Assembly: GCA_043228905.1 (NCBI GenBank)
Contig: JBHGNT010000009.1
Span: forward strand, 15,128,001-15,192,000
Direction of reading: 5' to 3'
From: Azolla caroliniana
Taxonomy: Eukaryota > Plantae > Polypodiophyta
DNA length: 64,000 nucleotides
Shown here: positions 3,681 through 55,600 of the stretch, in pieces
Layout of the letters: each line of letters begins with the position of its first letter
Numbering within the stretch: position 1 is the stretch's first letter
The notes under the pieces: generated by a model
Told to the model about the DNA's origin: nothing
The model's database searches: none
Seen by the model: only the letters and a program-made list of their open reading frames with translations
Position numbers and translations under genes: made by a program

Positions 3681-4543
3681 TCATAAAAGAAAGGGAGTGC
3701 CCCTTGTGGAAAGGGTTGCCTAGTTTGAGTTAGGAGGGTATACCATTAGGTCCAAGGTATGATAATCTTTCTTCTTATTTTCTTGTTTTTTGGTAGGGTT
3801 CTTTGAGGTCTTCTTCTTCGTCGTCGTCATGTGGGTTGAGTCTTCATGTCTGTTTAGGGTTTACTCTGGTTAGGACCTCGTATGTCTAAAGGGTTTCAGG
3901 CTTCTGCCTTGTTTCCTGTGCAAGACCCCGCTCGACGAGACAAGCCCGAGAGCTCCCTGATCGGCGGCTTGGCAACAGACTGCTGTTGTAACCTAACCTA
4001 CCTTGGTCCGACTCGAAGCCGGAGTTGTATCTTGCTCTTGTACATATATAATGAAGTTCTGTGCATCTGTGTTTGTGTCTGTGTCTTCAGAGTTTCTTCT
4101 TTCCCTTTCTGTACATAAGTAGTGTGCGTTGAGTCCGTGTTGCACGTATTCTCTCTCTATCTTTCCCTCTCCCGACAACCTCTGCAACAGACTATTGTTG
4201 TAACCTAACCTACGTTGGTCCGGCTCGAAGCCGGAGTTGTATCTTGATCTTGTACATATATAATGAAGTTTTGTGCATTTGTGTTTGTGTCTACGTCTTC
4301 AGAGTTTCTTCTTTCCCTTTCTATACATAAGTAGTGTGCGTTGAGTCGGTGTTGCACGTATTCTCTCTCTCTCCCTCTCCCGCATTCGACAACCTCCGGT
4401 ACATGTCCAGAATTGTTCCGGTTAGCGCCACAACTGGTGCAGCCGGGACCGGAGAGGGTCGGTTTCCCCGCATCCATCTCTTCCTCATTCGAGACCCCCA
4501 TGGTCCCGCCCCTTTTGACACATACTCCGGGAATACCGCGACA
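3681..4543 (+). repeat. 5' LTR of element B (5'-truncated; contains a ~212-bp tandem duplication at about 3972-4395)
   Basis: Matches 15033-15701 and the reverse complement of 19854-20771. The block GCAACAGACT...GACAACCTC occurs twice, at 3972 and 4184. Confidence 0.85.
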
Positions 4544-4547
4544 TCTT

Positions 4548-4565
4548 TGGTGAGCCCGAGGTGAA
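4548..4565 (+). promoter_or_regulatory. Primer-binding site, tRNA-Trp type
   Basis: TGGTGAGCCCGAGGTGAA lies 4 nt after the LTR end. It has 2 mismatches to the complement of the plant cytosolic tRNA-Trp 3' end (...TTCACGTCGGGTTCACCA). Confidence 0.8.
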
Positions 4566-4572
4566 AGGGAGG

Positions 4573-5456
4573 ATGGAGTTGGAAGACGATGAGTTCGCAG
4601 AGATGGTTGCTGAAGTGGTGTTGGAGTTCGGACGAGTGGTGATGAGGCGAGAAGCAGCGCAACAAGCTATTGAGCGAGTGGTCGAAAGAGTCGGCCGTTT
4701 CAACAGGGACAAAGTCCCATTCTACTTGGAAGCCTACAACACAAAAATGGAGGTGCGAAGCGTAGACGAGGCATTGAGGTTGGAGTTCTTCTGTCAGGTC
4801 GTTGCCATCCGCATGGAGCAGAAGTAAATGAGCTCCGAGAAGCTCATAATTTGTGGCAGGCCTTCGAAGAGGCGCTCCTGCAGGCATACAGAGGACGGCG
4901 GAAGAGCCGGGGACGACACGACTTCGACTAGTGGGTTGCATCGGCGAAGACCCACTAGGGTGCAACGAAGGCGTTTCGAGAGTTCGAGCGATGGCTTGCT
5001 CGGATCTTGGAGCGGGATCAAAGACTGGTGGGGGTGGACAAAGTCCTATTGTTCATTAGGTCGATCGATCGAGCAGAATGGGAGGCCATCGGAATTGAGC
5101 TCGAAGAGGACGACGGAGCGAATGGCCTTACCGAGGACTAGTCGGAAGTCGAGCGAGTTTGCCGGTGGTTGGATAAGGAGCGGTCCGCGAAAGGCAAAAG
5201 GAAGATAACAAGTGACAGTGTGTCATCACGGCAGGGAGCGGACACGCAACAAGAAGGATCAGTGAAGCTCGATGTAGAGGCCCTAGTTCGGGAAGCGTAC
5301 AAGGCTTTGAAGGCGATGGTCGACGAAGAAGAGGGATCTGGCACGCGGACAGATTCCGAAGACTCAGAGCTAGTCGGCCTTCCGGACAAGGCGGACATGG
5401 TCCAGGCAGAGGCCGAAGAATGGTACCACGGTACCACGGGAGAGGGTGTGGAGTGA
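4573..5456 (+). pseudogene. gag: Frameshifted gag N-terminal (capsid-like) ORF of element B
   Basis: AIERVVERVGRFNRDKVPFYLEAY aligns with AIESIVGSIGRFGGKDATSYLEAY in the gag of element A. The ORF is broken by frameshifts. Confidence 0.75.
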
Positions 5457-6734
5457 GATGCCCTCTTGACTTGCGGAAAAAGACCGGCCGAGGAGGAGTT
5501 CAAGAGTGGAGAAGAGCCCTCCACGCTTACTCTAGAGACTCTGGCAGTCGAGCCCGTGTGCCGACATAAGACCGGAGAGATGGAGGGCGCCGGCAAGGAG
5601 TCTTGGCACGATGCCAGCAAAGATGGATGGGAAACAGCCTGCGAGGAGGTCGAGGACGGAGCCACAGCAAAGAAAGAGGAAATGAGAGTCAGCGCTGAAG
5701 GGAGCGGAATCGGAAGTCGACCCGACAGGGGATCGAACTGGTCGGCATTCCGCTTCGGATGGAGCATGATTCGGATGTGGATCGTTCAACAGGGGTAGGG
5801 TTCGGCATGATGCAACTGACACAGAAGAGGGTGCGGGACGAGCTGCCCTCTTTACATGGGGAGAAAGATCGACCAAGGAGAAGGTCGGAATTCGGGAAGA
5901 AGATGATCGAGGGTACGGAACGAGTCCGGCAGGATCGGCATCAGAGCCAAAACTCCAGACATTGGAGAATCAAGCCAAAGCGGGGCTTGATCGATCATAG
6001 AGCGGATGCTTTCCACCAACACCACTAAAAGGGTCGTTGGCCTTAGATGAGTTCCTGGGAGTCGTTTAGGGATCGGTATCCCCACATCTCATTCAGAGAC
6101 TTTGGCAGCCTACGTGAGACCTAGAGAGATGGAAGATGGAGGCTGGAGTACAACAAGGAGGTCGATGACGAGTTCGAGAGAAGAACACGGAAGCAGAGGA
6201 ACGAAGACTGGTCCTATGGGTCACCTCACACCGGGCTAGAGACTTTGGCAGTCAACATCGGATCCGACATAAGACCAAGATATTGAGGGTGGCGGGAGGA
6301 GAACAGGACCCGGCAATGCAGAGTGACGAACGGACCCGGACGAGAAACGGGTGGAGCGGACTTTCGGATAACCGATCCAGAAGGGTGGAGGAAGAAGGCG
6401 TACGGAGAGGCTGGGAACATGGTACATCAGTACCATGGGAGAGGGTGTGGAGCAAGCCACCCTCTAGACATGTGGAGAAGGAGGACCCGGGATAGGGTCG
6501 GGAAAGATGAGAGGCCCAAGGAAGTTCCTTCACACCGGGCTAGAGACTTCGGCAGTCGGCTGCAGAGCAGACATAATACCAAGAGACTAATGGTGGTGGC
6601 AAGGGGATGAGGGAAAAGGCAGTGATGGGGCGATCCTCTCACCGATCCGGAGACTCCGGCAGTCAGCCCGAGAGCCGGCGTGAGACCTAGAGAGAAGGAC
6701 GGTGGCGGCAGGTGAACGGGATCCCAAGATACGG

Positions 6735-7148
6735 TGTCGTGTTGTTACGCGCTTGCGCGTAGAAGGGTGGGACCACGGGGGTCTTGGACCGAGGAGCAAG
6801 AGAGAGAGAGATTCACAGACACGTAGAAGCGAGAAGGAGAGATAGAATGGAACACTTGATTACAATAACGAGAGATTACAATAACAAGATATTACAATAA
6901 CAAGAGATTACAAACTCCGACGGTTACAACCAGCAAGGCGGTGATGGACCCGACACGGGGACCCTACTCATGCACACAGACGGAACCCATTGGACCTAGA
7001 GAAACACAGTAGGAAAAGCCTCTTCTGGCAGCGCACGGGTTACCCACGAAGCAGAGGCGTCGAACTCCCCCCCCCCTCGCACCCATGGAGAATGACGGTC
7101 GGAGGAGGAGAGAGTTCGGCTCTCGGTGCGGCAACACTTCGTCCTCCG
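6735..7148 (-). repeat. 3' LTR of element A (U3 part, PPT and integrase C-terminus deleted)
   Basis: Colinear with 12700-13158, then jumps directly into integrase sequence. Contains 16-bp GAGATTACAATAACAA repeats. Confidence 0.9.
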
Positions 7149-10100
7149 CGTTTTGAAAGCTTTTTGAAAGCTTTGATCCGCTTTCACGACACCGGCACCA
7201 CTAACCGTGTCCCGTCGAGTTCCGCGAGGTGGTATGTGCCGTTGTCGTTCGTGCTCGTCACCGTGTAGGGCCCGAACCATCTCCTTGCGAACTTTCGCAC
7301 CGCCTTGTGCTGATTGTCGAGGCTGCTGTCGTACACCAAGACCTAGTCGCCTTCCTGGATCTTCTTTGGTCACAACCGGTGCGTCTAGTTGAACCGGGTC
7401 TTGTTCCGTTCCCTTGCCGCCCGCAACTTTTCCTTTGCCCGTTTCATGTCCTCCGGCCTCCGCTCGAGTTGCCGAATCTGTGCCACCAGCAACTCCTCCC
7501 GGCTCATCTCGTCCTTCCAATCTACCACCGCCCACGAAGAAACCGTCTGTTCCACCGTCAGGATCGGCTTCTGTCCATACATAAGCTCTGCCGGCATAAA
7601 CCCTGTTACCGAACTGTGCATAGTTCGGTCCGCCCATAGTGCGTAAGGAAGGAGTCACGACCAATTCCTGACCTGCCCTCCGCATGCACACACCAACGCC
7701 TTTACGATCGGCCCATACCCACGTTCTACCTTTCCATTCGCCTCCGGATTGTATGCCGTAGTGAGGGAGAGTCTGACCCCTAGTCGGTCGAACAACTCCT
7801 TAGCTTCCCGCGCATCCAGCTCTCCCTAGTCCGCCACGATCCTCCCGACGCACCCGTACCGACACACTACCTCTTCGATCAGGAACCAGCATACCGCCGC
7901 GGTTGTCTTGTTCTGCAGTGCACGGCCTTCCACCTAGTTTGTTAAGTCTTCTCGCGCAAGCACCAGGTATCGCATCTGTCCTACTCCCATCGGCATTGTC
8001 ACCAAGTCTACCATCCACTTGAAATGGACCGTAGGTGGGTAGGTCAGGTGTAGCTCGTCCCGATGTCGGACCACGGAGTGCATCTGACAGCTTTCGCAAG
8101 TCGTTACGAACCGATGCACGTCCCGGTACAGCCTCGACCACCAGTACTTCTCCTTCAACTTCTCGAACGTGGCCCACGTTCCACGGTGTCCGGCCCAGGG
8201 ACTCTCGTGAAATGCCGCCAAGAGTTTCCCTTGTTCTTCTTTCTTTGCCACTACTCGGAGTGGGATGCCGTTTCTCTTCTTTGGGTGCCTCCATATGCAC
8301 TCGTCCCGCAGGAAGAATCGGTACGCCTTCTTCCGTACCCGGCTCGCTTCCTCTCTCGTCCATGCTGCGTCCGACGTCATCGTCCGTAGGAACCTCCCGA
8401 TTTGGAGCCACTCCCCGTCGTACTTGCTTTCGTCAAATTCGTTAAGCGCCGGAGTTTCCTTTTCCTTGTTATTACGTTAGTCGACCCGAAGAAATCCACG
8501 CTGACTTCTTCTTCATCCGAAACCATGCCGTCTTCGACGTTGAACCTTGCTCTCGAAAGCATGTCGGCCATGGCATTGTCCTTTCCGGAGATGTGCCGTA
8601 TCTCCGGGTTCAGGGACTTAATGTACGCTATCCACCGGAGCATTGCTAGGTCCGGCGTCGCGCATCCAGAAATCATACCGAGTATCGGCAGGCAGTACGT
8701 CTCGATGATCAACTCTGTCCCGATCAGATAGTCCTTGTCGGCCTTGACTGCCAAAACGATACCCCAAAGCTCGCGCTTAACTTGGGCGTATCCTCGCTAC
8801 CGCTCGCTCAATACCTTCGCCCCGAACCGGATCAGGAACCGTACGCCGTCCTTTTCCCCCTGACTAATTACCCACCCGATCCTGGTCGGGCTCGTCTCCA
8901 ACGTCACGCAAATGGGGACATCCTTGTCGTAAATCGCTTTTCGGAGAGCCGGTGCTACCGTAAGCGCCTCCTTTAGTCTCTGTACCGACTCCGTGTGCTC
9001 TATCCTCCACTCGAACCCACGCCCTTTCTTCAATAGCCCGTAGAGAGGCTCCGCAACATGCGCGTAGTGCGGAATCCAGATGTGGTAGAACACGCATGCT
9101 CCCAAGAATCTGCGGACCTCCGTGACCGACCCGCAATCATCCCTCATCGCCGAGATGGCCTCCACCTTTGCCGGAGACGGTTTCCTACCGTAGGGCCCGC
9201 ACAGGTGTCCGATCACCAAGATCTCCGACTGTCCGAACGCCGATTTTTCTCTGGAGAAGGTGAGTCGTGCGTTTTCGAGCTTCTGCAACACCTTCTCGCA
9301 GTCGTTGATGTGGTTCACGACGAACCTCCGGCATCCGTCTGGCCCGACAGTCTTGTACGCGTCATCCACCGGACACCCCTTTATCGAGATATCGTTCAAG
9401 AATGGCATGGTGATGTCCAGTATGCAGTCCCTCAGCACCTTGTTCATTACGTTCACCATATGTGCCATTGAATTCGTCTCGCCTTGTGGTAGGGTACACA
9501 TCCATACTAGGCCGAGAGGAGTTCGCATTGTCGTGATATCCCTGCTCTCGACTGCTAGCTGGAACTAGTTGTACCCCGAGTATAAGTCACCGACCGAATA
9601 GATCGACCTTCCAACGAAGGCCTCCGCGAACTCGTCTATGGTCGGTCCGATTCCTGCGTTACGGATGGTCACCTTGTTGACCGGTTGCAGGTCCTGAATG
9701 AAGCATAGCGTGCCGTTCTTCTTTGGCACCGTAAACCACCGGTTCGAATACGGGGCACTCGACGGTTCGAGGATGCCCATCTCCACCCTCTGATTTAGAA
9801 GCTCCATCAACTTCGGGATGTGAGCTCTCGGCACCGGAATTGGTTTGAGATTCCACGATACATCCGGTACCGTGAAGATCACCATCGGTTTGACGATCGT
9901 CGGGTCCACGCACCCGATCTCCTCCGGCGAGAACGCGAAGGCTTTCCCATGCCTTCCGAGCATTCTCCGAAACCTGTCCTCCTCTGCCGACAGTAGGAAG
10001 CCACCCCCACCGACCTTGAGCTCCCGTAGCGTTATGTCGGTGAACCGGTGCCCTATGCCAGTCGGATTCCGTAAACTTGGGTCCGACGCGACCCCCTTTA

Positions 10101-10545
10101 TCCGCTCCTCGCTGCCCTCCAGCAAGGGTGCCGCGACTGGCCTTACCTTCTGGTCCACAGTCTTGTACTTTGTATCCACGTGGGTCGTCCGATCCGACCT
10201 GATCCTTTCCCCGAAGTTCGCGATGACTTCGTACATTCCCATCGAACTAACCGGAACGGTCCGGTCTTCTCTAAGGTCTTCACCGATCACCTTTCGCAAT
10301 GCGCCCAAGGTGTCGTCAAAAGAGACCGCCTCCACGGCGCCGCTGATCTCTTCGTCGGGGGAGAGGACTTCGCATCCCCTGAGCCGCTCCTCCGCTCGCT
10401 TCCTTTCCCGGCCGCTGACGCTGGCTATAGTACAACCTCCATTTTAAGAAAACCAAAACTTCCTACCTACTATACATGTGTGGGGTTCTTCCGGTATGTC
10501 CGGACTACCTCGGCCCCACGCCTTCATAGCCCTCTCTAAAAATCC
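7149..10545 (-). pseudogene. pol: pol (RT-RNase H-integrase) of element A, with stops and frameshifts
   Basis: RT: PYSNRWFTVPKKNG, DLYSGY, LPQG, PFLND. RNase H: AMADMLSR. Integrase: HESPWAGHRG...CESC zinc finger, WMVDLV core, TGFMPAELMYG. Confidence 0.93.
10480..10545 (-). promoter_or_regulatory. Putative -1 ribosomal frameshift signal (G GAU UUU plus pseudoknot)
   Basis: The gag-PR frame ends ...GGG GAT TTT TAG. The -1 frame continues FLERAMKAWGRGSP..., homologous to the equivalent region of element K. A stem GGGCTAT/GTAGTCC starts 6 nt downstream. Confidence 0.75.
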
Positions 10546-12655
10546 CCTCGGTTGTCGCCGCCGAGGGTCTCGCGATTCCTCTCATGGTTCGGACGTACGG
10601 TCATGAATTGGATGGAATGCCGACCGTCCTAGCTCTTGACGCGCGCATACGCCGAACCGTTGTCCAGCACCTTCGTCTCCATGCGTGCTGCCGTAATGTA
10701 TGGTTCGCCGAGAATCACCGGGTGCGAGGATGTTTCCTGCATGAAGAAATGTTGATCTATCTCGACGTGACCAACCTTTACGCCTATATTCGGGCACGCA
10801 CAATGCAACTCCTCCGTAGCACGCGTCGCCGCGCGTATCTTCTACCCATGCTTGGTGTTGATTGGCCATTTACCCCTCTTGTAGAAATCCATGGACATAA
10901 GGTTGATTTCGGATCCATGGTCTACCAGGGCCACCACCGGTTCCGGAACGTCGCCAATCCGCACAGGGGTTTCCGTAGTTGCCCTGGCCCAATGCGGCTT
11001 TGCGTAGTGGCTTTCTGCCAACTCATCTTCTAGGGCCACGTCTTCTAAGTGCGTAGTCCGCACCTCCACCGGCTCTGTCAAGAGCCTCTTCCGCTTCACC
11101 AAGTCCACAATGGAGTCGTGGAACTCCCTCTTGGCGATTCCCAGCACCTCCCGCAACGACAGCTCCACTTTACTGTCGAGGATACATTCCTCCAAGACCT
11201 TTCGCAGGTCTGTGGTCCTTTCGATTTTGGTGCTCAACCGAAACCCCGCCAGCTTCTTCCCATCCAGCGAGCTTGGGTTGCCGGCACTGGTCGGTTTTGG
11301 TCTGAACCGGGTCTCATACCTCTGCGGAGGACCGACCCCTCCGGCCTTTCTTGCCTGTTTGTCCTCCACCAGAACCTCGTACTTCTGGCAAGCGGCTTCT
11401 ACGAAGCCCGTTTTCTCTTCGACCGGATCGTCCCAACCGGTGACCTCCTGGACCCTTTGCTCCGCGCGGTCCACCTCTTCCTTCTTCAGCCGAACTCCGG
11501 AGAGGCCTTCTAGCACTAGCGGCCAGAATCCGGAGTCCTTCGCCTTCCGGGTCTCATCACCCCCGACCTGAATTCCCGCCGACATTGACTGGTTAACGGC
11601 TTCAACGTGCCATGCCGCGGCCTCTTCCATCAACCTCTTCATTCCGCCGCGTCCCATATTTAGTTCTAGGGCTCTTCGGGTCTCACTCGCGTGCACTCGC
11701 CCGTTCCAGAGGTACACCACGTTGGTCTTGAGCGCGTCGGCGAAATCCGTGCAATCCTTCCGAATGTGACCGATTGCGTCACACCACATGCACCGCTGCC
11801 CAGCCGGCGGCCTCCGGTCGCAAGGTTGTTCGCCGCTGTCTCTCCGGGCCTGTGCGATCTGCAGATCGTGTACCATCTGTGTCAGCTCCTCCAGAGCCAC
11901 TCCTTTGGATGGGCCTCTGACCATGTCCTTCGATGCCGACCCCGAATCTGGCCAGATTTGGGTCTCTTCCTTCCTACCGGCCGGCACCGATACCGGCTCC
12001 TCGAGCCTCCTCCCTAGGACCGGCCTTGACCCCGACACGCTTCCGTCGCTCCAATCACGCCGTTTGTCGAAACGGCTGCAGACCCGTTTTACTACGGCCC
12101 AGTCTGTCGTGAGCCCTTCGTCCGTTTCCAATAGGGGACCCACCTTTTCCCTGTCGAGCGCGTCCACCAACTTGACAAATAGTAGTACTCGACTCGTTTC
12201 GAGCACCGTCCGGTCCAGCGTTGATAGCCGCGCGAACCGTTTTTCGAACTCCTGGAGGAGCACCGACGTGTTCCTCCCTTTTCCGGGGCTTTCCACCCAC
12301 GCCATGAAGTCCCGCCTCGACAGCCGAAACGAGTCGTCAAACCCGTACTTCTCGGGGAGCTTCAGCTCGAACTCCTCCCAAGTCTGGCATTCGGCCAACA
12401 CCATGAGCGCCTCCGCGTGGATGCCCGCGTCACCACCCGAGGGAATCCGGACAACCGCCTGTCCACCGGTATATCCCTCATGATCATTTCGGCTCGGTAA
12501 GCCTCCAAATAACTTGTGGCATCTTTCCCTCCGAACCGGCCTATAGAGCCGACGATCGATTCAATGGCTCTGTCGAGGGTACCCGTCCCCTCACGAGCGC
12601 TTACCAGCCGGTCGACGGCTACCGCCATTGCCTCTGCTAGCTCCGATCCCCTCAT
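10536..12655 (-). pseudogene. gag: gag-protease ORF of element A
   Basis: CCHC knuckle CMWCDAIGHIRKDC and aspartic protease motif ALVDHGSEIN. Minor lesions lie near 12420 and 10842. Confidence 0.92.
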
Positions 12656-12677
12656 CTTTCGACTCCTTTTCCGCCCG

Positions 12678-12695
12678 TTCACGTCGGGTTCACCA
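12678..12695 (-). promoter_or_regulatory. Primer-binding site, tRNA-Trp
   Basis: The plus strand reads TTCACGTCGGGTTCACCA, matching 18 nt of the plant tRNA-Trp 3' end (from recall). It lies 4 nt from the LTR. Confidence 0.88.
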
Positions 12696-12699
12696 AATA

Positions 12700-13395
12700 T
12701 GTCGCGTTGTTACGCGCTTGCGCGTAGAAGAGCGGGACCACGGGGGTCTTGGACCGAGGAGTGAGAGAGAGAGAGATTCACAGACATGCAAAAGCGAGAA
12801 GGAGAGATATAGAACGGAACACTTGATTACAATAACCACAGATTACAATAACGAGAGATTACAATAACAAGAGATTACAATAACAAGATATTACAATAAC
12901 AAGAGATTACAAACTCAAACAGTTACAACTGGCAAGGCGGCGATGGACCCGACACGGGGACCCTACTCACGCACACAGATGGAACCCATTGGACCCAGAG
13001 AAACGCAGAAGGAAAAGCCTCTGTTGGCAGCGCACGGGCTACCCATGAAGCAGAGGCATCGAACTCCCCCCCCCCCCCCCCCCCCCCCCGACCCACGGAG
13101 AATGACGGTCGGAGGAGGAGAGAGAGTTCGGCTCTCGGTCCTGTAGCACTTCGTCCTCCTTAACGCGCGATCCCCCCGTCTTCCTTCTCTCCTCTCCTTA
13201 AATAGTTCCCAAAAGGGGGTGCCCCTTTCCCTAGTCAAATCGCTTTATTCCCTGTCCCTTCTGACAGAGATACGCACAATCCCTCCTAATAAATGGAATC
13301 AATATCAAAATATCAATTCATGTGTCCATTCGTGTAAGAGCCGGTTCATGCGCCTTTTTGTCCGAATCCGCCTATGGCCGGTTTTCTTCACGACA
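12700..13395 (-). repeat. 5' LTR of element A (696 bp)
   Basis: TGTCGCG...CACGACA termini, flanked by the PBS and the TSD. Confidence 0.92.
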
Positions 13396-15032
13396 ACGGT
13401 GTAGAAGTGCGGATGGGCTATCCTACGGTGATCCTCACACCGATCCGGAGACTCCGGCGGTCGGCCCGAGAGCTGGCGTGAGACCTAGAGAGAAGAACGG
13501 TGACGGCAGGTGAACGGAATCTAGCAGAAGGGCCGAAAGGGAGCAGAAGGAGGTGTCAGGCCAGCGATGTGGCCACGAACCAGATACGGACCCAATTGGC
13601 AAGGTCAGAAGGACGAAGATTGAACGCGCTTGGTACACGAGTCAGTTGCCTAACGGATTGGAGGCTTGAGAAGGATCCTTCACACCGGATCTAGAGACTT
13701 CGGCGGTCAACACCGAGAGCTGACGTAAGAACAAGATGCTGACGGTGGCAGTGAGCGGACGAAGGCCGTAGCAACAGAGGCACCGAGTAACCAAGGCGTC
13801 GCGAGAACAACGAAGGCTAGGCAGGCCGAAACGGGCAAGGGTGATCCTTCATGGGTAGCAGCACGGAAAGCTACCAAGGACACCCAAGCGGGGAGCGGTG
13901 TGTCGAACCGAAAGGGCAAACCCAAAAGCGGATCGGAAGACGTGCGTGTGGCCATCAAGGGCCGAAGTAAAACATGGGTACGGGATAGTGTTCGGCATAG
14001 GCGGTGCTGAGCAAGGAAGATGGAAGACGGCACACGAGACGGTGTTCGGAAACCAAGTGCAGGATAGGCTGCACGGGTCGGTAGCCGAAAACGGTATCGA
14101 TGACCGAAGGAGGATCCTCCACACCCACTTCGGAGATCTCGGTGGTTCAGTCAGAGTGGCAACAACTCATGTGGCAAGCTAAGCCCAACATAACAAGCTG
14201 GTAGGGGCGAGGGGACGACGACAAGTATGGCACCGAACCAGTTGCAGCAGCGTGAAACAAAAGGGGCTAAGCGGGCCAACACGGGGTGTCCCTTGAATGC
14301 GGAGAACACCGGTATGCGGAGAAATGACAAGCGACGACACATGATCTGGCCAAGCAGGGGCCGACGAAGTGTGCACAAAGAAAGACCAGAGTTCGGCACA
14401 TGTGGCGCCGAGCAAAGGAGGACGGCGGACTGAGCCTCTTGCGGGGCGTAGTCAAGAGTTACGTGGCACACGGAGGTGCCTGGACGAGAATACGGGCGCG
14501 AAGACGGATTGCATAGGTCGGTAGCCTCAAAGAACATTGACAGCCCAAGAACGATCCTTGACACCGATTCTGGAGACCTCGGTAGTTCAGCCATCATGGT
14601 AATGTAAGACCGAGGAGAAGGAAGGAAGGTGGCGGCAAGGAGACAAAGGCAATAGCGAACCACAACAGTGAACGAGTAATCAAGGCATCGCGATGATTTC
14701 CGGAGGCCAAGAGGGCCACTATGGGGTGTTCCTTGGACGTAGAGGATACCTGTATACGGGGACGCGATGAGTGTGCGTACGGTCGATCAAGGGCCACGAG
14801 ACGAGCACGCGTACGAGAGAATATCGCAGCAAACGACTTGTTGATAGGTCGATCGAGCCTACGGAGAGGCGAGCGCGAGGATGGAACCGGAGCCGACGGT
14901 TCAGACCGGCGGAGGCCAACACGGTAGCCGGGATGTGGATTACGGAAGGCCGGTTGCTCACTACGGTCGGGATCTCTCACACTTCTTCGAACTTGGCACG
15001 TACCGGTGGATGTGCGGTTTGGTGGGGGCGGA

Positions 15033-28339: not shown

Positions 28340-29753
28340 CTCCCCCGTGGTACGAATGTACCATGTTCCGGCCTCTCCGTAGGCCTGCTTCCTCCACCCT
28401 TCAGGAATGGTTATCCGGAAGTCCACCATGCCCGGTTCTCGTTCTCTCCAAATTGTCGGGTCCCGTTCTCCTGCCGCCACCATCAGTGTCTTGGTCTTAC
28501 GTCGGATCCGATGCCGACCGCCGAAGTCTCTAGCCTGGTGTGAGGTGACCCATAGGACAGGTCTTCATTCTTCGCTTCCAGATCGGTTGTATTGGCCGTA
28601 ACCTCCGCGTCCTCGCCGCCACTTTCCGTCTCTTAGGTCTTCCGTTGGTTCACGGACGCAACCGCCTAAGTCTCAGGAACGAGTGTAGAGGACCCGTACT
28701 TCAGTCAACCGCCTCTTTCGTTTCTCCCCCGCCACCGTCGATCCCTTTCTTTGCGCTTCCCCGCCATCTGCCTTCTCTTTTGGTCTCACGTTGACACGCC
28801 GTCCAAACTGCCGAAGTGTCAGGTCAAGATGTGGGGATACCAATTTCGTAACGACTCCTGACGATTTGTCCCAGGCCATTGACCCTTTTAGTGGTGTCGG
28901 TGGAAAGAATCTACTCTATGATCGATCAAGCCCCACCTGGGTTTGATTCTCCAATGTCCAGAGTTTCGTCTCTAATGCCGATCCCACCGGACTCGATGTG
29001 TACTCTCGATCATCTTCTTCCCGATTCTCGACCTTCTCCCGGTCGGTCTTTCTCCCCATGTAAAAGAGGGCAACTCGTCCCGCACCCTCTCCCGTATCGG
29101 CACCTTCATGCCGAACCTTGTCCCTATCGAACAATCCACATCTGGATCATGCTCCACCCAAATTGGAACACTAACCAATTCGATCCCCGGTCGGGTCAAC
29201 TTCCGGTTCCGCTCCCTTCGGTGTTGGCTCTCATTTCCCCTTTCTTCTCAGCCGTGGTGTCGTCCTCAACCTCGTCGCAGGCTGTTTCCCATCCATCTTC
29301 GTTGCCATCATGCCAGGACTCCTCGCTAGCGCCTTCCATCTCTTTGGTTTTATGCCGGCACACAGGCTCGACTATCGGAGTCTCCGGAATCCGCATGGAG
29401 GGCTCTTCTCTGCTCCCAACCTCCACCTTGGCCGGTGTTTTTCCGCAAGTCGAGAGGGCGTCTGGCTCCACACCCTCTCCCATGGTACTATCATACGATT
29501 CCCCGGCGTCTGCCTGGGCCATGTCCACCTTGTCCGGAAGGCCGACTTGCTCTTAGTCTTCGGAATTTGTCGGTGTGCTGTATCTCTCTTCTTCTTCAAC
29601 CATCGCCTTCAGAGCCTCGTACACTTCCCGGACCAAGGCTTTGACACCGAGCTTCGCTGATCCTTCTTGTTGCGTGCCTGCTTCCTACCGTGATGACACG
29701 CCGTTGCGCGTCATCTTCCGTTTTCCTTTCGCGGACTGCTCCTCGTCCAACCG

Positions 29754-30347
29754 TCAGCATACTCGTTCTACTTCCGACCAATCCTCGGTAAGGTCATTCA
29801 CTCTGTCATCGTCTTCGAGCTCAATCCCGATGGCCTCCCATTCCACTCGGTCTATCAACCTAATGAACAACAAGACTTTGTCCGGCCCCACCAGACATTG
29901 CTCCCGCTCTGGCAACCAAGCAAGCCGCCGCTCGAACTCTCGGAACGCCTTTGTTGCACCACGGTGGATCTTTGCCAATGCAACCCACTGGTCGAAGTCG
30001 CGTCGTCCCCGACTCTTCCGTCGTCCTCCATATGCTTGCAGGAGCGCCTCCTCGAAGGCCTCCCACGAACTGTGAGCTTCTCGGAGCTCCTTCACTTCCG
30101 CATGCATACGGATGACGACGACCAGATAGAAGAACTCCAACCTCAACGCCTCATCCACGTCTCGCTCCTCCTTTTCTGCATTGTAGGCTTCCAAGTAGAA
30201 TGGGACTTTGTCCCCGTTGAAACGGCTGACTCTTTCGACCACTCGCTCAATAGCTTGTTGCGCCGACTTCTGTCTCACCACCACTTGTCTAAACTCCAAC
30301 ACCACTTCGGCCACCATCTCCGCGAAGTCATTGTCTTCCGACTCCAT
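29754..30347 (-). pseudogene. gag: gag N-terminal ORF of element C
   Basis: MESEDNDFAEMVAEVV...RFNGDKVPFYLEAY...LTEDWSEVERVC, homologous to the gag of elements A, B and K. Confidence 0.8.
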
Positions 30348-30385
30348 CCTCACTTGCCGCCCTTTCATGTCGGGTTCACCAAAGA

Positions 30386-31300
30386 TGTCGCGGTAATCCG
30401 TGAGTACATGTCGAAAGGGGCGGGACCACGGGGGTCTCCGACGAGGAAGAGATGCGTGTCGAGAAGCCGACTTCTCGCCAGTCCCGGTTGCACTGGTTGT
30501 GACGCAAACCAAAGCGATTCCAGACGCGTACCTGCAGCTACCGAACACGAGAGAGGGAGAGAGAGAGAGAGACCACGCACGCCACACCGACTCAACACAC
30601 GCCTCTTATGTACAGGAAACAAAGGGAAAGAAACGCACCCGACACCAACAAAGACACGAATATGCACAACCTAATATATCTATATTTACAGTTGCAAGAT
30701 ACACCTCCGGCTTCGAGCCAGACCAAGGTAGGTTAGTTTACAACAGTCGTCTGCTGCCAAGCCGCCAATCGAGGGACCTCTCAAGCTTGTCGCACTGAGC
30801 GGGGTCTTGCACAGGAGATCGAACTGAAGCAAACCCACCTGAACATACAAGCTCTTCACCAGACTAAACCCTAAACAGACACGAAGGAGAAGAAGAAGTC
30901 GAAGAACCCTAACCGGAAACACGAAAGTAAGAACAAGAAGAAGCTACTGAAAATAGGTGGAAGAAGACCAAAGTAAAAACCCTAAGAAAATAAGAATGAG
31001 ATGAAGAGGAAGAACACCACCAAACCCTAGACCTAAGTGGTATACCCTCCTAACTCAAAATGGGCAACCCCTCTAAAAGGGACCCTCCCTTCCTTTTATA
31101 GAACAAGGAGAGGGATGCATTACAATGTGGGATAAATCCCGATTTACATGGGACTCTCTGTCCCGACTTGACTCCTACTCGACGCCATAAAGGCACCCCT
31201 ATTATTCACACGTTTTTACAAGGGTAAGTGCAGATGATGCACTCCGCCGATTCTTCTGATATTCCCTGGTTTCTCACCATGTCCCAGAATCTTCACGACA
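30386..31300 (-). repeat. 5' LTR of element C
   Basis: TGTCGCG...CACGACA termini, with the Trp PBS adjacent. Confidence 0.92.
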
Positions 31301-40272: not shown

Positions 40273-40770
40273 TGTTGAGAATCAAGCTCAACCTCGTCTA
40301 GTGTGTGAACTCACCTTGAGAGTGAATGGACACTCCAACGGTCAAGAGTCACCATTATGTCACCATTTGGTATTCTAGCATTTAGTATTAGTCATAGAAT
40401 CATATTCTATGACACATAACTTATGAGCTTTCACATTCCCCATGCTCCATGAGTCTTGTAGTTAATGAAGAGAGAGGGTGACTATATAAAGTGACGGGAA
40501 CTCAACGCTCCTTATGCGCTACGCTCGGCCACAACCGAGCTTAGAATGATACATAGAAAACAGAAACAAATGTACGCGACACAAAGGAGAGAAAAGGTAC
40601 ACAGAATGTTTATGTGGAAAACCCAAAGAGGGAAAAACCACGGCAGCCCACAGGCTGCATACTATCACTATTTGCCCTAAGTCATATTTATACTAGTATG
40701 ACTTTTCGGCTATTTACAAATATAGCCACGATGGGCTCTCAGAAACATATTTACGAATATGTCTCTTCCT

Positions 40771-41202
40771 CCGGTTCTCACCGGGTCTGCACCATCCGGC
40801 TCTCCGTAGCCGGGTGCTCCTCATCCGGTTCACACCGGGTCTGCACCATCCGGCTCTCCGTAGCCGGGTACTCCTCATCCGGTTCACACCGGGTCTGCAC
40901 CATCCGGCTCTCCGTAGCCGGGTACTCCTCATCCGGTTCACACCGGATCTGCACCATCCGGCTCTCCGTAGCCGGTTACTCCTCATCGGGTTCACACCGG
41001 GTCTACACCATCCGGCTCTCCATAGCCGGGTACTCCTCATCCGGTTCACACCGGGTCTGCACCATCCGGCTCTCCGTAGCCGGGTACTCCTCATCCGGTT
41101 CACACCGGGTCTGCACCATCCGGCTCTCCGTAGCCGGGTACTCCTCATCCGGTTCACACCGGGTCTACACCATCCGGCTCTCCGTAGCCGGGTACTTCTC
41201 TT
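40771..41202. repeat. 54-bp minisatellite x8 in the 3' LTR of J
   Basis: Unit CCGGTTCACACCGGGTCTGCACCATCCGGCTCTCCGTAGCCGGGTACTCCTCAT. Confidence 0.95.
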
Positions 41203-41304
41203 CCGGTTTCGTCCTCAGCCTATCGGCCTCGGCCGAGATTGTTCGTCGGCACTGTTCTTCTCCCTTCCCATCTGGAGGGACCTGTCTCCCAACAAACTCC
41301 CCCT

Positions 41305-45351: not shown

Positions 45352-45838
45352 ATTTCTGTGTTGTTTCGCTCTGATACCACTTGACGGGAACTCAACGCTC
45401 CTTATGCGCTACGCTCGGCCACAACCGAGCTTAGAATGATACACAAAAAACGGGAACGAATGTACGCGACACAAAGGAGAGAAAAGGTACACAGAATGTT
45501 TACGTGGAAAACCCAAAGAGGGAAAAACCACGGCAGTCCACAGGCTGCAAACTATCACTATGTTGGAATGTACAAAACAGTGAGTTCACGGAGGCAACGA
45601 CCTCGTACTCATGATCTTCGCCACAGGCGGCGGTTACAACAGAGGCAGTGACCTCTTTCTTTCTCTCTCTCTCTGTACACTGTTACGTGTTCTCTCTTCT
45701 TCTTGCACCAACAAGAAAATGACAACTAACTACACATATTTGCCCTAAGTCATATTTATACTAATATGACTTTTCAGCTATTTACAAATATAGCCACGAT
45801 GGGCTCTCAGAAACATATTTACGAATATGTCTCTTCCT

Positions 45839-46162
45839 CCGGTTCTCACCGGGTCTGCGTCATCCGGCTCTCCGTAGCCGGGTGCTCCTCATCCGGTTCA
45901 CACCAGGTCTGCACCATCCGGCTCTCCGTAGCCGGGTACTCCTCATCCGGTTCACACCGGGTCTGCACCATCCGGCTCTCCGTAGCCGGGTACTCCTCAT
46001 TCGGTTCACACCGGGTCTCCACCATCCAGCTCTCCGTAGCCGGGTACTCCTCATCCAGTTCACACCGGGTCTGCACCATTCGGTTCTCCATAGCCGGGTA
46101 CTCCTCATCCGGTTCACACCGGGTCTGCACCATCCGGCTCTCCGTAGCCGGGTACTTCTCTT
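45839..46162. repeat. 54-bp minisatellite x6 in the 5' LTR of J
   Basis: Same unit as at 40771. Confidence 0.95.
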
Positions 46163-46560
46163 CTGGTTTCGTCCTCGGCCGAGATTGTTCGTCGGCACTG
46201 TTCTTCTCCCTTCCCATCCGGAGGGACCTGTCTCCCAACATAAAGCACCCTCCTCCCACCTTGTAAAAGAGTTGAGTCTTTCTCCTTTGTTAATATACTT
46301 TACCTTGCGTATTCTCTATGTCTTACTCCGTGTCTCTCTCACTCTCTCTCTCTCTCTCATACACACACACTCACAACACATATCTCTAGTCTATTCCGCT
46401 GCACAAGAATCGCCACCGATTCTTAACATGGTATCAGAGCGATTTGGTAGCTCGATCTAGCCCACTCACCTCATCGTGATCGTGTGTCGTGTCCTTCCCC
46501 GACAACCAAGAACCAGCTCATCGCTATCGTAGCTTCGCTACATAGCTTGCATTCGAAGAG

Positions 46561-47391: not shown

Positions 47392-47984
47392 GCTTGAAGA
47401 CAAAATTGAAGAAAAAATTGGCGACCCCCCTTCTTTTTTTCCTATAAAAGGAGGTTGAGGGGGGGAGGGGCTCATTTGAGGAGGACGTATTGAGAGGAGG
47501 AGACTATCGCCACTTTTCCTTCGGATCTCTTAATCTTCTTCTTCACCACTTCTCTTCATCTCATACCCCTTCATCCCCTCATCACCACGTGCTCGTCTTC
47601 TTCACGTTGGCACTGAAAGTGATCGTTTACGATGCTCGTGAGCCCAAGCTTCGTTGGTTCAACATTGCTTCACCCCGTTCGTCTTTGCGAGCCCGTGTGC
47701 TCACCGTTCTGGCGGTTGTGGTTCATTGTGGTTGGCCTTTTTGTGGTGCTTGTGTGTTCGTCTTTGTCGTGTTCGTGCTCCGTGTTTGGATTTGCTCTTG
47801 TCTCTAAGGGCATTTAGTATTTATGTTTTGTTGAGCTTGTGGTTAACTAGAAGTTGCCACATTCTAATCGAGCCCTATTTTATAAAGGGCCCTCTTGCGT
47901 TGGAATTGAACATATATTTATATCTTTAGCCAATATCAATCGTGTTTTTTTTTTTTTCTTTCTTTCTTTGTTCTCATCCCCTTG

Positions 47985-50372
47985 TACATTCAGCCATCTT
48001 GCTTGTGTGTGTTTGTGTCTTCCTTGTACATTCGGTCGTCTTGTGACGAGGGAGCGTTTCAGGTGTGCCCATGCACCTCTCCTCCTCATAAAGACGTACA
48101 AGCATTTGTATGTGTGCTTGTGTCTTCCTTGTACGTTCGGTCGTCTTGTGATGAGGAGCGTTTCGGGCGTGCCCATGCACCTCTCCTCCTCATAATGACG
48201 TACGAGCATTTTGTGTGTGTGTTTGTGTCTTCCTTGTACGTTCGGCCATCTTGTGACGAGGAAGCGTTTCAGGCATGCCCATGCACCGCTCCTCCTCATA
48301 AAGACGTACGAGCATTTATGCGCATGTTTGTGTCTTCCTTGTACGTTCGGCCATCTTGTGACGAGGGAGCGTTTTGGGCGTGCCCATGCACCTCTCCTCA
48401 TAAAGAAGTACGAGCGTTTGTGCATGTGTTTGTGTCTTCCTTGTACATTTGACAGTCTTGTGACGAGGGAGCATTTCAAGAGTGCCCATGCACCTCTCCT
48501 CCTCATAAAGGTGTACGAGCATTTTGTGCATGTTTTTGTGTCTTCCTTGTACGTTCAGCCGTCTTGTGACGAGGGACCGTTACGGACGTGCCCATGCACC
48601 TCTCCTCCTCATAAAGATGTACGAGCATTTGTTCGTGTGTTTTTGTCTTCCTTGTACTTTCAACCGTCTTATGACGAGGGAGCGTTTTGGGCGTGCCCAT
48701 CCACCTCTCCTCATAAAGAAGTACGAGCGTTTGTGTGTGTATTTGTGTCTTCCTTGTACATTTGACCGTCTAGTGACGAGGGAGCATTTCGGGCATGCCC
48801 ATGCACCTCTGAAGGTGTACGAGCATTTTGTGCATGTGTTTGTGTCTTCCTTGTATGTTCGGCCGTCTTGTGACAAGGGAGCGTTACGGGCGTGCCCATG
48901 CACCTCTCCTCCTCATAAAGGCAGACGAGCATTTGTGCGTGTGTTTGTGTCTTCCTTGTACGTTCAACTGTCCTATGACGAGGAAGCGTTTCGAGCCTGC
49001 CCATGCACCTCTCCTCCTCATAAAGGCACATGAGCATTTTGTGTGTGTGTATGTGTTTTCCTTGTACGTTTGGCCGTCTTGTGACGAAGGAGTGTTTCGG
49101 GCGTGACCATGCACCTCTCCTCCTCATAAAGGTGTACGGCATTCTTGCATGTGTTTGTGCCTTCCTTGTATGTTCGGTCGTCTTGTGACGAGGGAGCATT
49201 TTGGACGTGCCCATGCACCTCTCCTCCTCATAAAGGCGTATGAGCATTTTGTGTGTGTGTTTGTGTCTTCCTTGTACGTTCGGCCGCCTTGTGAAGAGGG
49301 AGCGTTTCGGGCATACCCATGCACCTCTCCTCCTCATAAAGGCTTACGAGCATCTGTGCGTGTGTTTGTGTCTTCCTTGTACGTTCAGTCGTCTTGTGAC
49401 GAGGGAACGTTTCAGGCATGCCCATGCACCTCTCCTCCTCATAAAGGCGTACGAGCATTTGTGTGTGTGTTTCTGTCTTCCTTGTACGTTCGACCGTCTT
49501 ATGACGAGGGAGCGTTTTGGGCGTACCCATGCACCTTTCCTCATAAAGACGTACGAGCATTTGTGCCTGTGTTTGTGTCTTCCTTGTACATTTGACCGTC
49601 TTGTGACAAGGGACCGTTTCAGGCATGCCCATGCAGCTATCAAGGCGTACAAGCATTTTGTGCATGTGTTTGTGTTTTCCTTATACGTTAGGCCGTCTTG
49701 TGACGAGGGAGCGTTTCGGGCATGCCCATGCACCTCTCCTCCTCATAAAGACGTACGAGCATTTGTGTGTGTTTGTGTCTTCCTTGTACATTCGACCGTC
49801 TTGTGACGAGGGAGCATTTTAGGCATGCCCATGCACCTCTGCTCCTCATAAGGCATATGAGCATTTTGTGCGCGTGTTTGTGTTTTCCTTGTACGTTCAG
49901 CCGTCTTGTGACGAGGGAGTGTTTTGGGCATGCCCCTGCACATCTCCTCCTCATAAAGACGTACGAGCATTTGTGCGTGTGTTTGTGTCTTCCTTGTACG
50001 TTCGACCGTCTTGTGACGAGGGAGTGTTTCGGTCATGCCCATGCACCTCTCCTCCTGAAAAAGACGTAGGAGCATTTTGTGCGTGTGTTTGTGTCTTCCT
50101 TGTACGTTCGGTCATCTTGTGACGAGGGAGCGTTTTGGGCGTGCTCCTCCTCATAAAGAAGTACGAGCATTTGTGTGTGTGTTTGTGTATTCCTTGTACG
50201 TTCGGTTGTCTTGTGACGAGATGTCATTCAAGCTCGCCCATGCACCTCTCCTTCTCATAAAGGCATACGAGCATTTGTGCGTGTGTTTTCGGTCTTTCTT
50301 GTACGTTCAACATCTTTTGACAAGGGAGCATTCGGGCGTGTCCACTCACCTCTCCTCCTCATAAAGACATAC
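47985..50372. repeat. ~105-bp tandem satellite, about 22-23 units, inside the 5' LTR of K
   Basis: Unit GTGTTTGTGTCTTCCTTGTACGTTCGGCCGTCTTGTGACGAGGGAGCGTTTCGGGCGTGCCCATGCACCTCTCCTCCTCATAAAGACGTACGAGCATTTGTGCGT; the ORF track shows a 35-aa periodicity. Confidence 0.95.
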
Positions 50373-50708
50373 GGGCATTCGTGTCTCTGTTATCGTCCCC
50401 TTGTGTGTTCATCTTGCGTACTCATCTTTGCTTGTACCCGTTTGATCACTTTGCTCATGCGGTGATCTCGAAAACTCGACTAGTCGTGATCAACAAAAGC
50501 CACTGGCCTCACAAAAGGCGCAACGAGCCCTTGCTCGGGAAGGGATCAGGAAGTAGTATTGTCGTAAAGCAAACCTCAGGTCTTCTCTATCACTGCAGTA
50601 CTCCCTAGTCCAAGACCCTTGTGGTCCCGCCCAAGTAACACACACGCGCGAAACATCGCGACATAAATTGGTGAACCCGACATCAAAGGACGGCAAGGGA
50701 GATCCAAG

Positions 50709-52852
50709 ATGCGAGGAGGAGAACTCGCTGAAGCGATGGCGGCAGCGGTGGACTGCTTGGTAAATGCTCAAGAAGGCATCACCGGCCTAGACCGGGCCAT
50801 AGAGACATGGTCAGCACAACGGTTTAATGGAAGAGATACCACAAGCTACTTGGATGCCTATAAGGCCGAAATGCTTATGCGAAACGTCCCCGAAGATATG
50901 CGGCTAGCCGGATTCACTAGAGTGGTAACACCGAGTATCCACACAGAGGTACTCGAGATACAAGTAGACCCTTGCAATTGGGAGGGGTTCAAAGAAAAAC
51001 TCCTTGAGAAGTACGGCCTTGATGACTCACTCAGAATTTTGAAAAGGGATCTAATGGAGTGGGTTGAGCTTCCCAGCAAGGCGAGAAATACTATGGCACT
51101 TCTACAAGAATTTGAGAAGCGCTTCGTGCGACTCTCGGCTCTTGATAGGACGGTGCTTTACACAAGCAAGGTCCTACTATTCATAAAATTTGTTGATGCA
51201 CAAGACCGAGAGAAGGTGGGGCTCCCCCTCGAAACTGATGATGGGCTCACGACGGATTGGGCTATGGTAAAACGGGTTTGTAGTCGCTTCGATAAGAGAA
51301 GGGAATGGAACCATGGGTCTCCTTTGAGCGGCAAACATCCACATGCTCCATTAGTCAAACACACGAACCCAGGGGTGGTAGAGCACCTCAAGAAAGAGAG
51401 CAAACAAATGCAAGGTTCGTCCTCGAGAGAAACGTGGTTGAAGCACCGTCTGGAGGGTTGGCAATAGACGAGCTCACAAAGATGGTGTGAGATCTCCAAA
51501 TAGCGCAAGTTAGGAGAGAGAGTGGTGGCCCTCAAGATCGATGTCCCCCATTCGCGCAAAGATGTATGTGGTGCGACAATCCCGACCACCTATGAAGGGA
51601 GTGTGGAGACTTTCAAGAGGCCCTAAGAAGGGATATTGTCTATCTTTGGAACAATAGGGTCTATTCGACGGAGACAAGGCGCCCCTTGGAATTGAATCAA
51701 GGCCGAGGGGGCATGAGAAGGCTAATGGAGGAGGCCGAATCACGACATATTGAAGTCGTCCACTACTCGGCGTCGGTTGGGATCCGAGTGGGAAAAGAGG
51801 TGAGGAGGCAAGAGGAGAAAGAGTTTGACTTTTGGCCATCAATACTTGGAAGCCTCTCTAGGGGAAAGTTCAAAAGAGAAGAAGCGGACAAAGCGGAAAG
51901 AAGGGTCCAAGAAGAAACCGGGTGGAAGGATCCGGTGGAAGAAAAGACTGGCTTAGTGGAAGCCGCTTGCCAAAACTACGAAGTAATGGTAGAAGAGAAG
52001 AAGGTAGGAAATGATGTGGAAGCCGGTCCATCAAGGAAATACGACGCTTGAGGTGCACTAAGAAGGGAAGAGCCGAACCAGTCTCAAGCACGTGACGAAA
52101 GATGGAAAGAGAAGGGGAACCCCCCCAACTTCAAGATTTGCTCGAAGATCGAACAAGCAACGGACTTGAAGAAGGTAGTGGAGGAAAGGATCCTCAATAG
52201 TCACGTAGAGTTTACTCTACGAGAGGTCCTCGGAATTGCCAAGAAAGAATTACATCAGGTCATCATCGACCTAATGAAGAGGAAGCGGCTCTCGACGGAG
52301 CAAGAAGTGGAAAATCCCACGATTGTAAATGCATTGTGAACTGAGGTGCCCAAGGAAGACAAAGACTATGTGGATAGTCACTACACGAGGCCGCATTGGG
52401 CGAGAGTGACAACGGAGACACCGGTGCGGGTCGGAGATGTAAATGAGCCGGTTGTAGCCTTGATCGACCATGGCTCTAAGGTTAACCTTATGTCCATGGA
52501 CTTTTATAAAAAGGGAAACTAGCCGATCAACACGAAGCACGGGTGGAAGATTAGAGCGGCGACCCGAGCAACCGAGGAGCTATACAGGGCTTGCTCGAAT
52601 GTACGGGTGAAGGTGGGGGACGTAGAAATAGATCAACATTTTTGTGTTCAAGAGACGTCCTCACACCCGGTCATCTTGGGTGAACCATACATCATGGTGG
52701 CTCACATGGAGATGAAGGTGCTAGACAACGGGTCGGCATATGCGACAGTCAAGAGCCAAGATGGGAAGCATTCGGTCCAATTCCTTACGGTGAGGCCCAA
52801 CCATGAGCGCAATCGAGCCTCCCTCAAAGGGGAGAGCCGAGAGGATTTTTGA
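50709..52852 (+). pseudogene. gag: gag-protease of K (frameshifted)
   Basis: MRGGELAEAMAAAVD...; CMWCD knuckle; LIDHGS protease motif; ends QFLTVRPNHERN...EDF*. Colinear with element A. Confidence 0.9.
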
Positions 52853-52905
52853 TGCAAGCTATTAAAGAGTGGGGCCGCAATAGCCCGAGGCAAACTAAGA
52901 CCCTA
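52843..52905 (+). promoter_or_regulatory. Putative -1 frameshift signal of K
   Basis: G GAT TTT TGA, with pol open in the -1 frame from 52849 and a stem GCTATT (52858-52863)/AATAGC (52879-52884). Confidence 0.75.
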
Positions 52906-54096: not shown

Positions 54097-54630
54097 CTCA
54101 TACCCCTTCATGCCCTCATCACCACATGCTCATCTTCTTCGCGTTGGCACTCGAAGTTCTCATTTACGGTGCTCGTGAACCCGAGCTTCGTTGGTTCAAC
54201 GTTGCTTCGCCTCGTTCTTCATTACGAGCCCGTGTGCTCGCCGTTCAGGTGGTCGTGGTTCATTGGGGTTGGTATTTCTGTGGTGCTTGTGTGTTCGTCT
54301 TTGTCGTGTTCGTGCTCCGTGTTCGGATTTGCTCTTGTCTCTAAGGGCATTTAGTATTTATGTTTTGTTGAGCTTGTGGTTAACTAGAAGTTGCACATTG
54401 TAATCGAGCCCTATTTTATAAAGGGCCCTCTTGCATTGGAATTAAACACGTATTTATTTCTTTAGCCAATATCATTCGTGTTTTTCTTTCTTTCTTTCTT
54501 TCTTTGTTCTCGTCCACTTGTACGTTCGGCCGTCTTGTGACAAGGGAGTGTTTCAAGCGTGCCCATGCACCTCTCCTCCTCATAAAGGCGTACGAGCATT
54601 TGTGTGTGTGCTTGTGTCTTCCTTGTACGT

Positions 54631-55427: not shown

Positions 55428-55600
55428 ACGTTTGGTCGTCTTGTGACAAGGGAGCGTTTCAAGCGTGCCGATGCACGTCTCCTCCTCATAAAGGCGTACG
55501 AGCATTTTGTGCATGTGTTTGTGTCTTCCTTGTACTTTCGGCCGTCTTGTGACGAGGACGCGTTTCGGGCGTGCCCATGCACCTCTCCTTCTCATAAAGA

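Follow-up and report, generated by a model that had tools for sequence, protein, structure and literature searches.

Predicted −1 frameshift at the protease/reverse transcriptase junction in Phygy-like retrotransposons of Azolla caroliniana, and a clade that probably shifts by −2

Programmed −1 ribosomal frameshifting at a slippery heptamer followed by an H-type pseudoknot is textbook matter. [quoted passage not shown] The excerpted REXdb account names no lineage in which overlapping protease (PR) and reverse transcriptase (RT) frames are the prevailing organisation, and gives the ORF organisation of Phygy, a clade regarded as species-specific, as “ND” (Neumann et al. 2019, PMC6317226). Here, a 64,000-nt stretch of Azolla caroliniana DNA (GCA_043228905.1, contig JBHGNT010000009.1, 15,128,001 to 15,192,000, forward strand; “the window”), which holds copies of two related retrotransposon families, elements A and K, was analyzed together with relatives from the same genome and from metagenomes, and it seems very likely, on comparative sequence evidence, that such Phygy-like elements make their RT, RNase H (RH) and integrase (INT) by programmed −1 frameshifting between PR and RT, as the initial annotation of the window had proposed. 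Frameshifting is the best reading because the site is conserved, the spacer is fixed, the stems covary, the linker is open and AUG-less, and young intact copies keep the split frames.

Element A (6735–13395, minus strand) is LTR-flanked, has a primer-binding site and the domain order GAG-PR-RT-RH-INT, and is thus a Ty3/gypsy LTR retrotransposon. Its primer site is an 18-nt match to the host tRNA-Trp(CCA) plus CCA; a loose pattern of the tRNA-Trp 3′ arm had 63 matches in the genome (a stricter first pattern had none), with all three of those checked elsewhere being full tRNA-Trp genes, and many of the matches cluster at G000:C8 17.80–17.82 Mb and C16 4.99–5.11 Mb. Clear 4-bp target-site duplications (TSDs) of the NCGN type flank element A (CCGT), 6/8 copies of the “third-frame” clade introduced below and 3/3 copies of a 710-aa family. 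A Pfam scan of two intact pol proteins found one RNase H region and neither a chromodomain nor an aRH domain, and TatI, which also has a Trp primer and a 4-bp TSD, was rejected on the missing aRH. With a Trp primer and an NCGN duplication, and with neither aRH nor chromodomain, the element is Phygy-like; it resembles Phygy also in that there is no extra ORF, the coding region fills the interior and close homologues occur in Physcomitrium (the closest named ones being from Physcomitrium, Adiantum and Riccia). Three families are ~7.0, 7.5 and 7.9 kb long; the length given for Phygy is 7.7–10 kb. It differs from the REXdb description in that GAG-PR here overlaps RT-RH-INT with a recoding cassette, and in that the homologues extend to ferns and liverworts.

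A break between PR and RT, with Gag-PR as the major product, is also known from Ogre and Retand of the Tat clade, although Ogre has an intron there and Retand a single in-frame stop, both with aRH and other primers (PMC6317226); the earlier statement that most plant gypsy elements have one ORF or are broken between gag and PR was hence incomplete. In the retroviruses MMTV (mouse mammary tumour virus) and HTLV (human T-lymphotropic virus), a −1 shift at the protease end likewise opens pol, but beta- and deltaretroviruses need a prior gag-pro shift, whereas Gag and PR share one frame here and PR would be equimolar with Gag (PMC5009743). The slip site, as had been said of GGAUUUU at the outset with regard to dianthoviruses, belongs to the G_GAU_UUU heptamer class of umbra- and dianthoviruses, which also share a stop close behind, a structure ~6 nt downstream and plant ribosomes; those viruses, however, use a bulged stem-loop with long-range (kb) pairing, while a local H-type knot is predicted here (PMC5009743).

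The frame break proved to be a property of the families and not of the window copies. Pol lies in the −1 frame relative to PR in 46 of the 52 own-genome copies processed out of 60 loci (27/30 for A and 19/22 for K). The genome search gave 4292 preliminary candidates for element A and 3076 for element K, figures that are not copy numbers. The sequence GGATTTT is present in 24/29 A copies besides the window copy and in 29/30 K copies, and two further −1 families occur in the host genome. Intact young copies with gag and pol in one frame, which the initial annotation had named as counter-evidence, were not what was found, as copies with LTRs >99% identical still hold two separate frames. In a redundant metagenome set of 80 loci, 79 of them from one accession series, 69 could be parsed, and these have GGATTTT (58), GGATTTC (4), GGTTTTT (2), AGATTTT (1) or none of these (4), so that G_GAU_UUY, a tolerated G_GA variant of the X_XXY_YYZ-type heptamer in the upstream phase, is present in 62/69; five of the 11 unparsed loci carry the cassette by a second pattern. 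Twenty-eight family representatives from the host genome and the metagenomes were aligned, with L020, L023 and L170 (indel copies of families already included) left aside, and in 26 of them, i.e., in all 26 of the −1 families, G_GAU_UUY stands exactly 6 nt ahead of stem 1 (measured from the heptamer; measured from the stop, the distance is 3 nt), a spacing inside the 5–9 nt of a canonical −1 signal. This conservation of frame, site, spacer and stems is beyond chance.

Protein homologues tell the same story from farther away. Among the best 120, 58 end in D/G/N-F, 33 in a DFxxxPL-like sequence and 2 in QVFx, which makes 93/120 with one of these ends, named moss, fern and liverwort entries included; the other 27 end differently, most of them being gene models or fragments. 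Since the proteins end anywhere from 128 to 149 residues past the protease motif, the Asp-Phe is tied to the protein end and not to a fixed position. The DFxxxPL junction type had no pattern match in the host genome, and none of the 77 pattern matches in viral contigs was related. More distant Gag-PR proteins (P0180, P0213 and P0249–P0268; one of them named, from the liverwort Calypogeia) end ~130–138 aa past the protease motif, with D/N/G-F in the last 8 residues of 19/22, and the cassette may, to judge by these, be older than the aligned families. Retropepsin clusters of plants and Basidiomycota in the ESM Atlas are a lead only. Altogether, the cassette is real and conserved, and probably functional.

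No gap interrupts the alignment of the 28 representatives over heptamer, spacer and stem 1. Stem 1 is well supported by this alignment: 96% of its cells are paired (31–58% in slid-register controls), four of its eight pairs show two-sided, compensatory changes (C-G/U-A, A-U/G-C), some of them non-synonymous (Gly/Asn/Asp, Ser/Gly), and its covariation score was reached by 0/500 shuffles, a test that is inflated by kinship among the rows. The stem 1 hairpin has a folding z below −2 in 22/28 representatives, and stem 1 reaches 11–12 bp in some families. For stem 2, a register-free test gave −9.3 kcal/mol with the own partner, −7.2 with foreign and −4.1 with shuffled ones, a preference equalled in 3/100000 permutations (p 3e-5) and, when 13 clades are represented by a single family each, in 407/100000 (p 0.004). 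A four-pair core, in a register picked by the author from the best helices, is kept in 26, 27, 27 and 26 of 27 families (degenerate L127, used in the other stem and folding tests, is excluded from this register table); at one of its positions four families have A-U where the rest have G-C, and the neighbouring position varies among U-A, C-G and G-C. Covariation, suggested as a check at the outset, was seen in stem 1, and stem 2 is favoured by the register-free test; an H-type pseudoknot appears likely from these models.

In the window, element A closes its Gag-PR frame with GGG GAT TTT TAG and has RT in the −1 frame, stem 1 pairs GGGCTAT (10532–10526) with GTAGTCC (10508–10502) as G-C, G-C, G-U, C-G, U-A, A-U and U-G, and GTGGGG (10519–10514) of stem 2 is complementary to CCCCAC (10485–10480); the positions given earlier for heptamer, stop, stem and loop pairing all check, and so do the −1-frame peptides quoted for A and K. 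The stem 1 hairpin of A alone folds with a z of −3.2. A pattern scan of the window gave one exact match (A) and K at two mismatches, a weak result by itself, as the pattern came from the family alignment that includes both, and an Rfam scan of 10300–10700 gave two matches, both far under the gathering scores.

Several observations weigh against this reading and should be set beside it. G_GA is a weak XXX. Given the full 69–76-nt window stretch, pseudoknot-free folding forms stem 2 and a rival hairpin in preference to stem 1 (z −1.3 to −1.6); the K window copy, whose stem bases are altered relative to most K copies, folds no better than shuffles, and over the representatives pseudoknot-free folding keeps stem 1 at P > 0.5 in only 17/28. 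Stem 2 was paired in just 45.7% in the fixed-column alignment test, which it failed because loop 3 varies in length; its support consists of the register-free test and the author-chosen register, and in several families it has 4–5 bp, with many foreign partners pairing better there. Finally, 11 longer, fused proteins were found, all of them Riccia gene models that bridge or miss the junction at different break points, and these are read here, from the proteins, as products of predicted introns. As a separate observation, in family A and related families the rival hairpin (10490–10504, minus strand) shares bases with the 3′ arm of stem 1, and the pseudoknot-free models form it together with stem 2 in place of stem 1; it may represent a switch between conformations, or noise.

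The linker between the slip site and the TKYK motif (about 120–155 codons) is where the alternatives to frameshifting can be weighed. Its pol frame is stop-free in 54/55 metagenome loci with the downstream motif in frame (an unselected count), its other two frames have many stops, and its ratio of nonsynonymous to synonymous substitution (dN/dS) of 0.22–0.73 in nine pairs indicates purifying selection. The first in-frame Met lies anywhere from codon 1 to 109 (this range and the stops in the other frames refer to the longest-open-frame member of each cluster, with three loci counted twice). Neither a splice dinucleotide common to the junction nor a conserved AUG was found across the representatives. 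Such an open, selected, AUG-less linker with no shared splice sites speaks against both an intron of the Ogre type and reinitiation. Beside this, most pairs (L071/L073, L117/L118, L105/L111, L065/L066) have a smaller synonymous distance over the linker than over RT (e.g., 0.07 vs. 0.27 and 0.58 vs. 1.03), as expected from a constraint at the RNA level.

Splicing as in Ogre, where removal of a PR/RT intron from some transcripts would join the frames and the hairpin would be incidental or a splicing signal, can point to the Ogre intron at the same place (PMC6317226), to the TTTTAG of family A, which resembles an acceptor, and to gene models of Riccia and Physcomitrium in which the junction is bridged, some of the moss ones at a recurring point. 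Sequencing runs X1–X3, compared with element A and the third-frame family, were silent on both splicing and expression: X1 is probably DNA, and X2 and X3 leave the junction uncovered. We nevertheless consider splicing very improbable, as the stretch that would have to be the intron is open and evolves under purifying selection, unlike the non-coding, stop-containing spacer with conserved splice sites of the Ogre type, an AG follows the U-run in only 13/28 representatives, no GT near the stop is shared, the most widely shared GT and AG columns fall inside stem 1, and the Riccia break points vary. That pol is instead made separately, by termination–reinitiation or from an internal AUG near the gag-PR stop, would suit the UGAUG carried by some K copies (10/30 have their first Met at codon 2) and the upstream in-frame AUGs of the third-frame clade; overall, we give it hardly any credence, and for the −1 families even less, because an AUG is lacking nearby in 20/30 copies of K and in almost all of A, the first Met is scattered as described, 0/26 of the −1 families have an upstream −1-frame AUG near the site, and conservation of the U-run would be needless. 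Least credible of all is decay or an assembly artefact, with the stems reflecting protein constraint: copy A is full of lesions and the slip site is a homopolymer, but the identical break recurs in young intact copies of several families and in independent assemblies, a contig of run X1 crosses the third-frame junction without a gap, and the two-sided stem changes include non-synonymous ones, whereby this explanation is largely refuted.

With programmed −1 frameshifting, ribosomes translating Gag-PR would reach the predicted knot with GAU in the P site and UUU in the A site, and most of them would terminate directly behind Asp-Phe, setting Gag-PR free. A smaller share would slip by −1, the P-site tRNA moving from GAU to GGA and the A-site tRNA from UUU to UUU, and continue with …D-F-L-x-R through the linker towards RT, yielding Gag-PR-linker-RT-RH-INT. 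The outcome would be a structural protein in excess and a protease equimolar to Gag. We infer the slippage, its rate, and the fold and role of the knot from the frames, site, spacer, covariation and coding AUG-less linker that were observed.

The follow-up also brought to light a “third-frame” clade absent from the initial annotation, consisting of one host-genome family (L142) and two metagenome loci (2/28 representatives), in which Gag-PR ends QVFD or QVFY, the site is AG_GUU_UUU, one base shorter, and pol lies in the −2/+1 frame behind the same stems. Compared with the −1 representatives, one base differs at the site and the spacer is 5 instead of 6 nt; the −1 frame is closed immediately, or after six codons in L118. 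A gapped pattern found 64 copies in the host genome, 61 with GGTTTTT and none with GGATTTT; of the off-pattern ones, L230 (G000:C8) has one U fewer and two have a substitution in the U-run. Six of eight fetched copies, picked among matches with an open gag-PR, have both ORFs intact (739 + 1181 aa), and in 6/8 the LTRs are 99.4–100% identical. The L142/L117 and L118 families form one clade in trees with no outgroup, with support of 100/98 (protease) and 100/99 (pol, including four broken long-branch rows), and their RT dN/dS of 0.07 at a dS near 1 implies that pol has been kept in use since the two families split. The gap-free X1 contig that spans this junction comes from an independent run. 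To judge from the spread (26/28 representatives, plus DF ends in fern and liverwort proteins) on unrooted trees, −1 would be ancestral and −2 derived. Apart from this, loci L187 (G000:C1) and L172 (G000:C1099) have a 758-aa frame in which the protease region is followed by the integrase C-terminal tail of the third-frame family, then a purine tract and the LTR start, and are likely an internally deleted, pol-less derivative at two places.

This clade probably makes its pol by a −2 slip at G_GUU_UUU on the same predicted knot: tRNA-Phe would re-pair perfectly with UUU in both families, and the product …V-F-L-T-R would keep the register of D-F-L-x-R. The frame relation alone would equally fit a +1 shift or polymerase slippage on the U-run, and the six U of L118 would permit +1 re-pairing of tRNA-Phe; yet the five U of L142/L117 would place that tRNA on UUG, and the site is identical to a proven −2 site (PMC6675879), so that we see +1 or polymerase slippage as unlikely. 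A separately initiated pol has a comparably small chance in this clade, where an in-frame AUG 3–8 codons upstream in 30/30 copies speaks against the −2 slip; AUGs in the −2 phase, however, also occur, uselessly, in 10/26 of the −1 families, and their positions differ between L142 and L118.

Natural −2 cases named in a review are phage Mu, the protein-driven arteriviruses and TVV1. The G_GUU_UUU site and the immediate −1-frame stop (here in the L142 family) recall the nsp2TF of PRRSV (the virus of the porcine reproductive and respiratory syndrome) and other arteriviruses, which, however, use a C-rich motif 9–10 nt away with nsp1beta and PCBP, in place of the covarying stem at 5 nt seen here (PMC6675879); the arterivirus CCCANCUCC motif was not found 9–10 nt downstream in the third-frame clade, the product would, unlike nsp2TF, be an essential replicase, and the resemblance is, on this comparison, confined to the site. 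On an engineered U6A, −2 was favoured by spacers 1–2 nt shorter than those for −1, and a shorter spacer accompanies the presumed −2 here as well (PMC3458567).

The features of the window are collected in Table 1. Element A is, in its present form, 6.7 kb long, including a deletion, and its LTRs differ by a Kimura two-parameter (K2P) distance of 0.088 over 401 sites; with stops in gag-PR and pol and a frame break in gag, the copy is old and broken at several points, so that the window alone proves little. A frame break between RNase H and integrase is absent from 2/2 alignable sister copies, and a second programmed shift there was rejected as specific to this copy. Although the −1 peptide quoted for A is correct, the copy is a poor exemplar of that frame: the stop in FWFS* is common to only 2/29 other family copies, and the Met after the slip site (AMK) is Ile in 29/29, for which reason reinitiation at this AUG was rejected as peculiar to the window copy. 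Elsewhere in the window, 4184–6142 and 28761–30757 hold two related elements with a gag-like frame and a Trp primer site (30381, minus strand), which, with no RT match nearby, are probably non-autonomous relatives. Tandem arrays of 54-nt and ~105-nt units lie at 40615–41238, 45737–46198 and 56945–57298, and at 47894–50380 and 54517–57672, those of the ~105-nt unit surrounding the LTRs of element K.

Table 1. Window coordinates of element A, its predicted recoding cassette and the corresponding cassette of element K.
Feature	Position	Strand	Remark
5′ target-site duplication CCGT (NCGN type)	13396..13399	-	identical 4-mer behind 3′ LTR
5′ LTR of element A, TG...CA	12700..13395	-	start and length match family copy L204
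Primer-binding site (18 nt), complementary to host tRNA-Trp(CCA) at its 3′ end	12678..12695	-	
Gag-protease frame	10536..12655	-	DUF4100 match; one frame break and two stops in copy A
Protease motif DHGS	10922-10911	-	within gag-protease frame of element A
Slippery heptamer G_GAU_UUU, gag-PR phase	10539..10545	-	
Gag-PR stop UAG	10536..10538	-	first 3 nt of 6-nt spacer (10538-10533)
Stem 1, 5′ arm	10525..10532	-	last base unpaired in copy A, C-G in family
Stem 2, 5′ arm	10514..10519	-	inside stem 1 loop
Stem 1, 3′ arm	10502..10509	-	
Stem 2, 3′ arm	10480..10485	-	
−1-frame linker, ~125 codons, slip site to conserved TKYK motif	10170..10542	-	
RT, RNase H, integrase	7187..10169	-	broken in copy A
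3′ LTR of element A	6735..7147	-	5′ part lost together with integrase end
3′ target-site duplication CCGT	6731..6734	-	
Element K cassette	52843..52905	+	layout as in A
Element K heptamer	52843-52849	+	
Element K stop UGA	52850-52852	+	
Element K stem 1	52856-52863/52879-52886	+	
Element K stem 2	52870-52874/52901-52905	+	

In the literature searched on Phygy recoding, as the initial annotation had advised, the cassette is not described, the subscription papers, GyDB and Repbase, which lay outside that search, being places that may note the frame break; no description was found in the excerpts of PMC7466625, PMC11963269, PMC12786077, PMC10508981 and PMC13468544 either. The cassette would supply a mechanism for Phygy, whose organisation REXdb leaves as “ND”, and would be a third way, besides the Ogre intron and the Retand stop, of splitting the polyprotein after the protease, while also explaining the introns that gene predictors invent in these abundant elements. 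It offers dozens of natural variants of what is predicted to be one plant frameshift pseudoknot, and, with the −1 and −2 versions differing by one site base and the spacer, what sets the direction of the shift would be testable with natural sequences. We lean, with some reserve, towards a lineage-wide picture in which a pseudoknot-driven −1 shift after the protease serves to make the replicase across mosses, ferns and liverworts, and in which one clade with recent activity went over to −2 on losing one base at the slip site, with the knot kept; if true, that clade would provide an RNA-only −2 signal of natural origin and let the mRNA-tension model for the direction of the shift be tested in nature.

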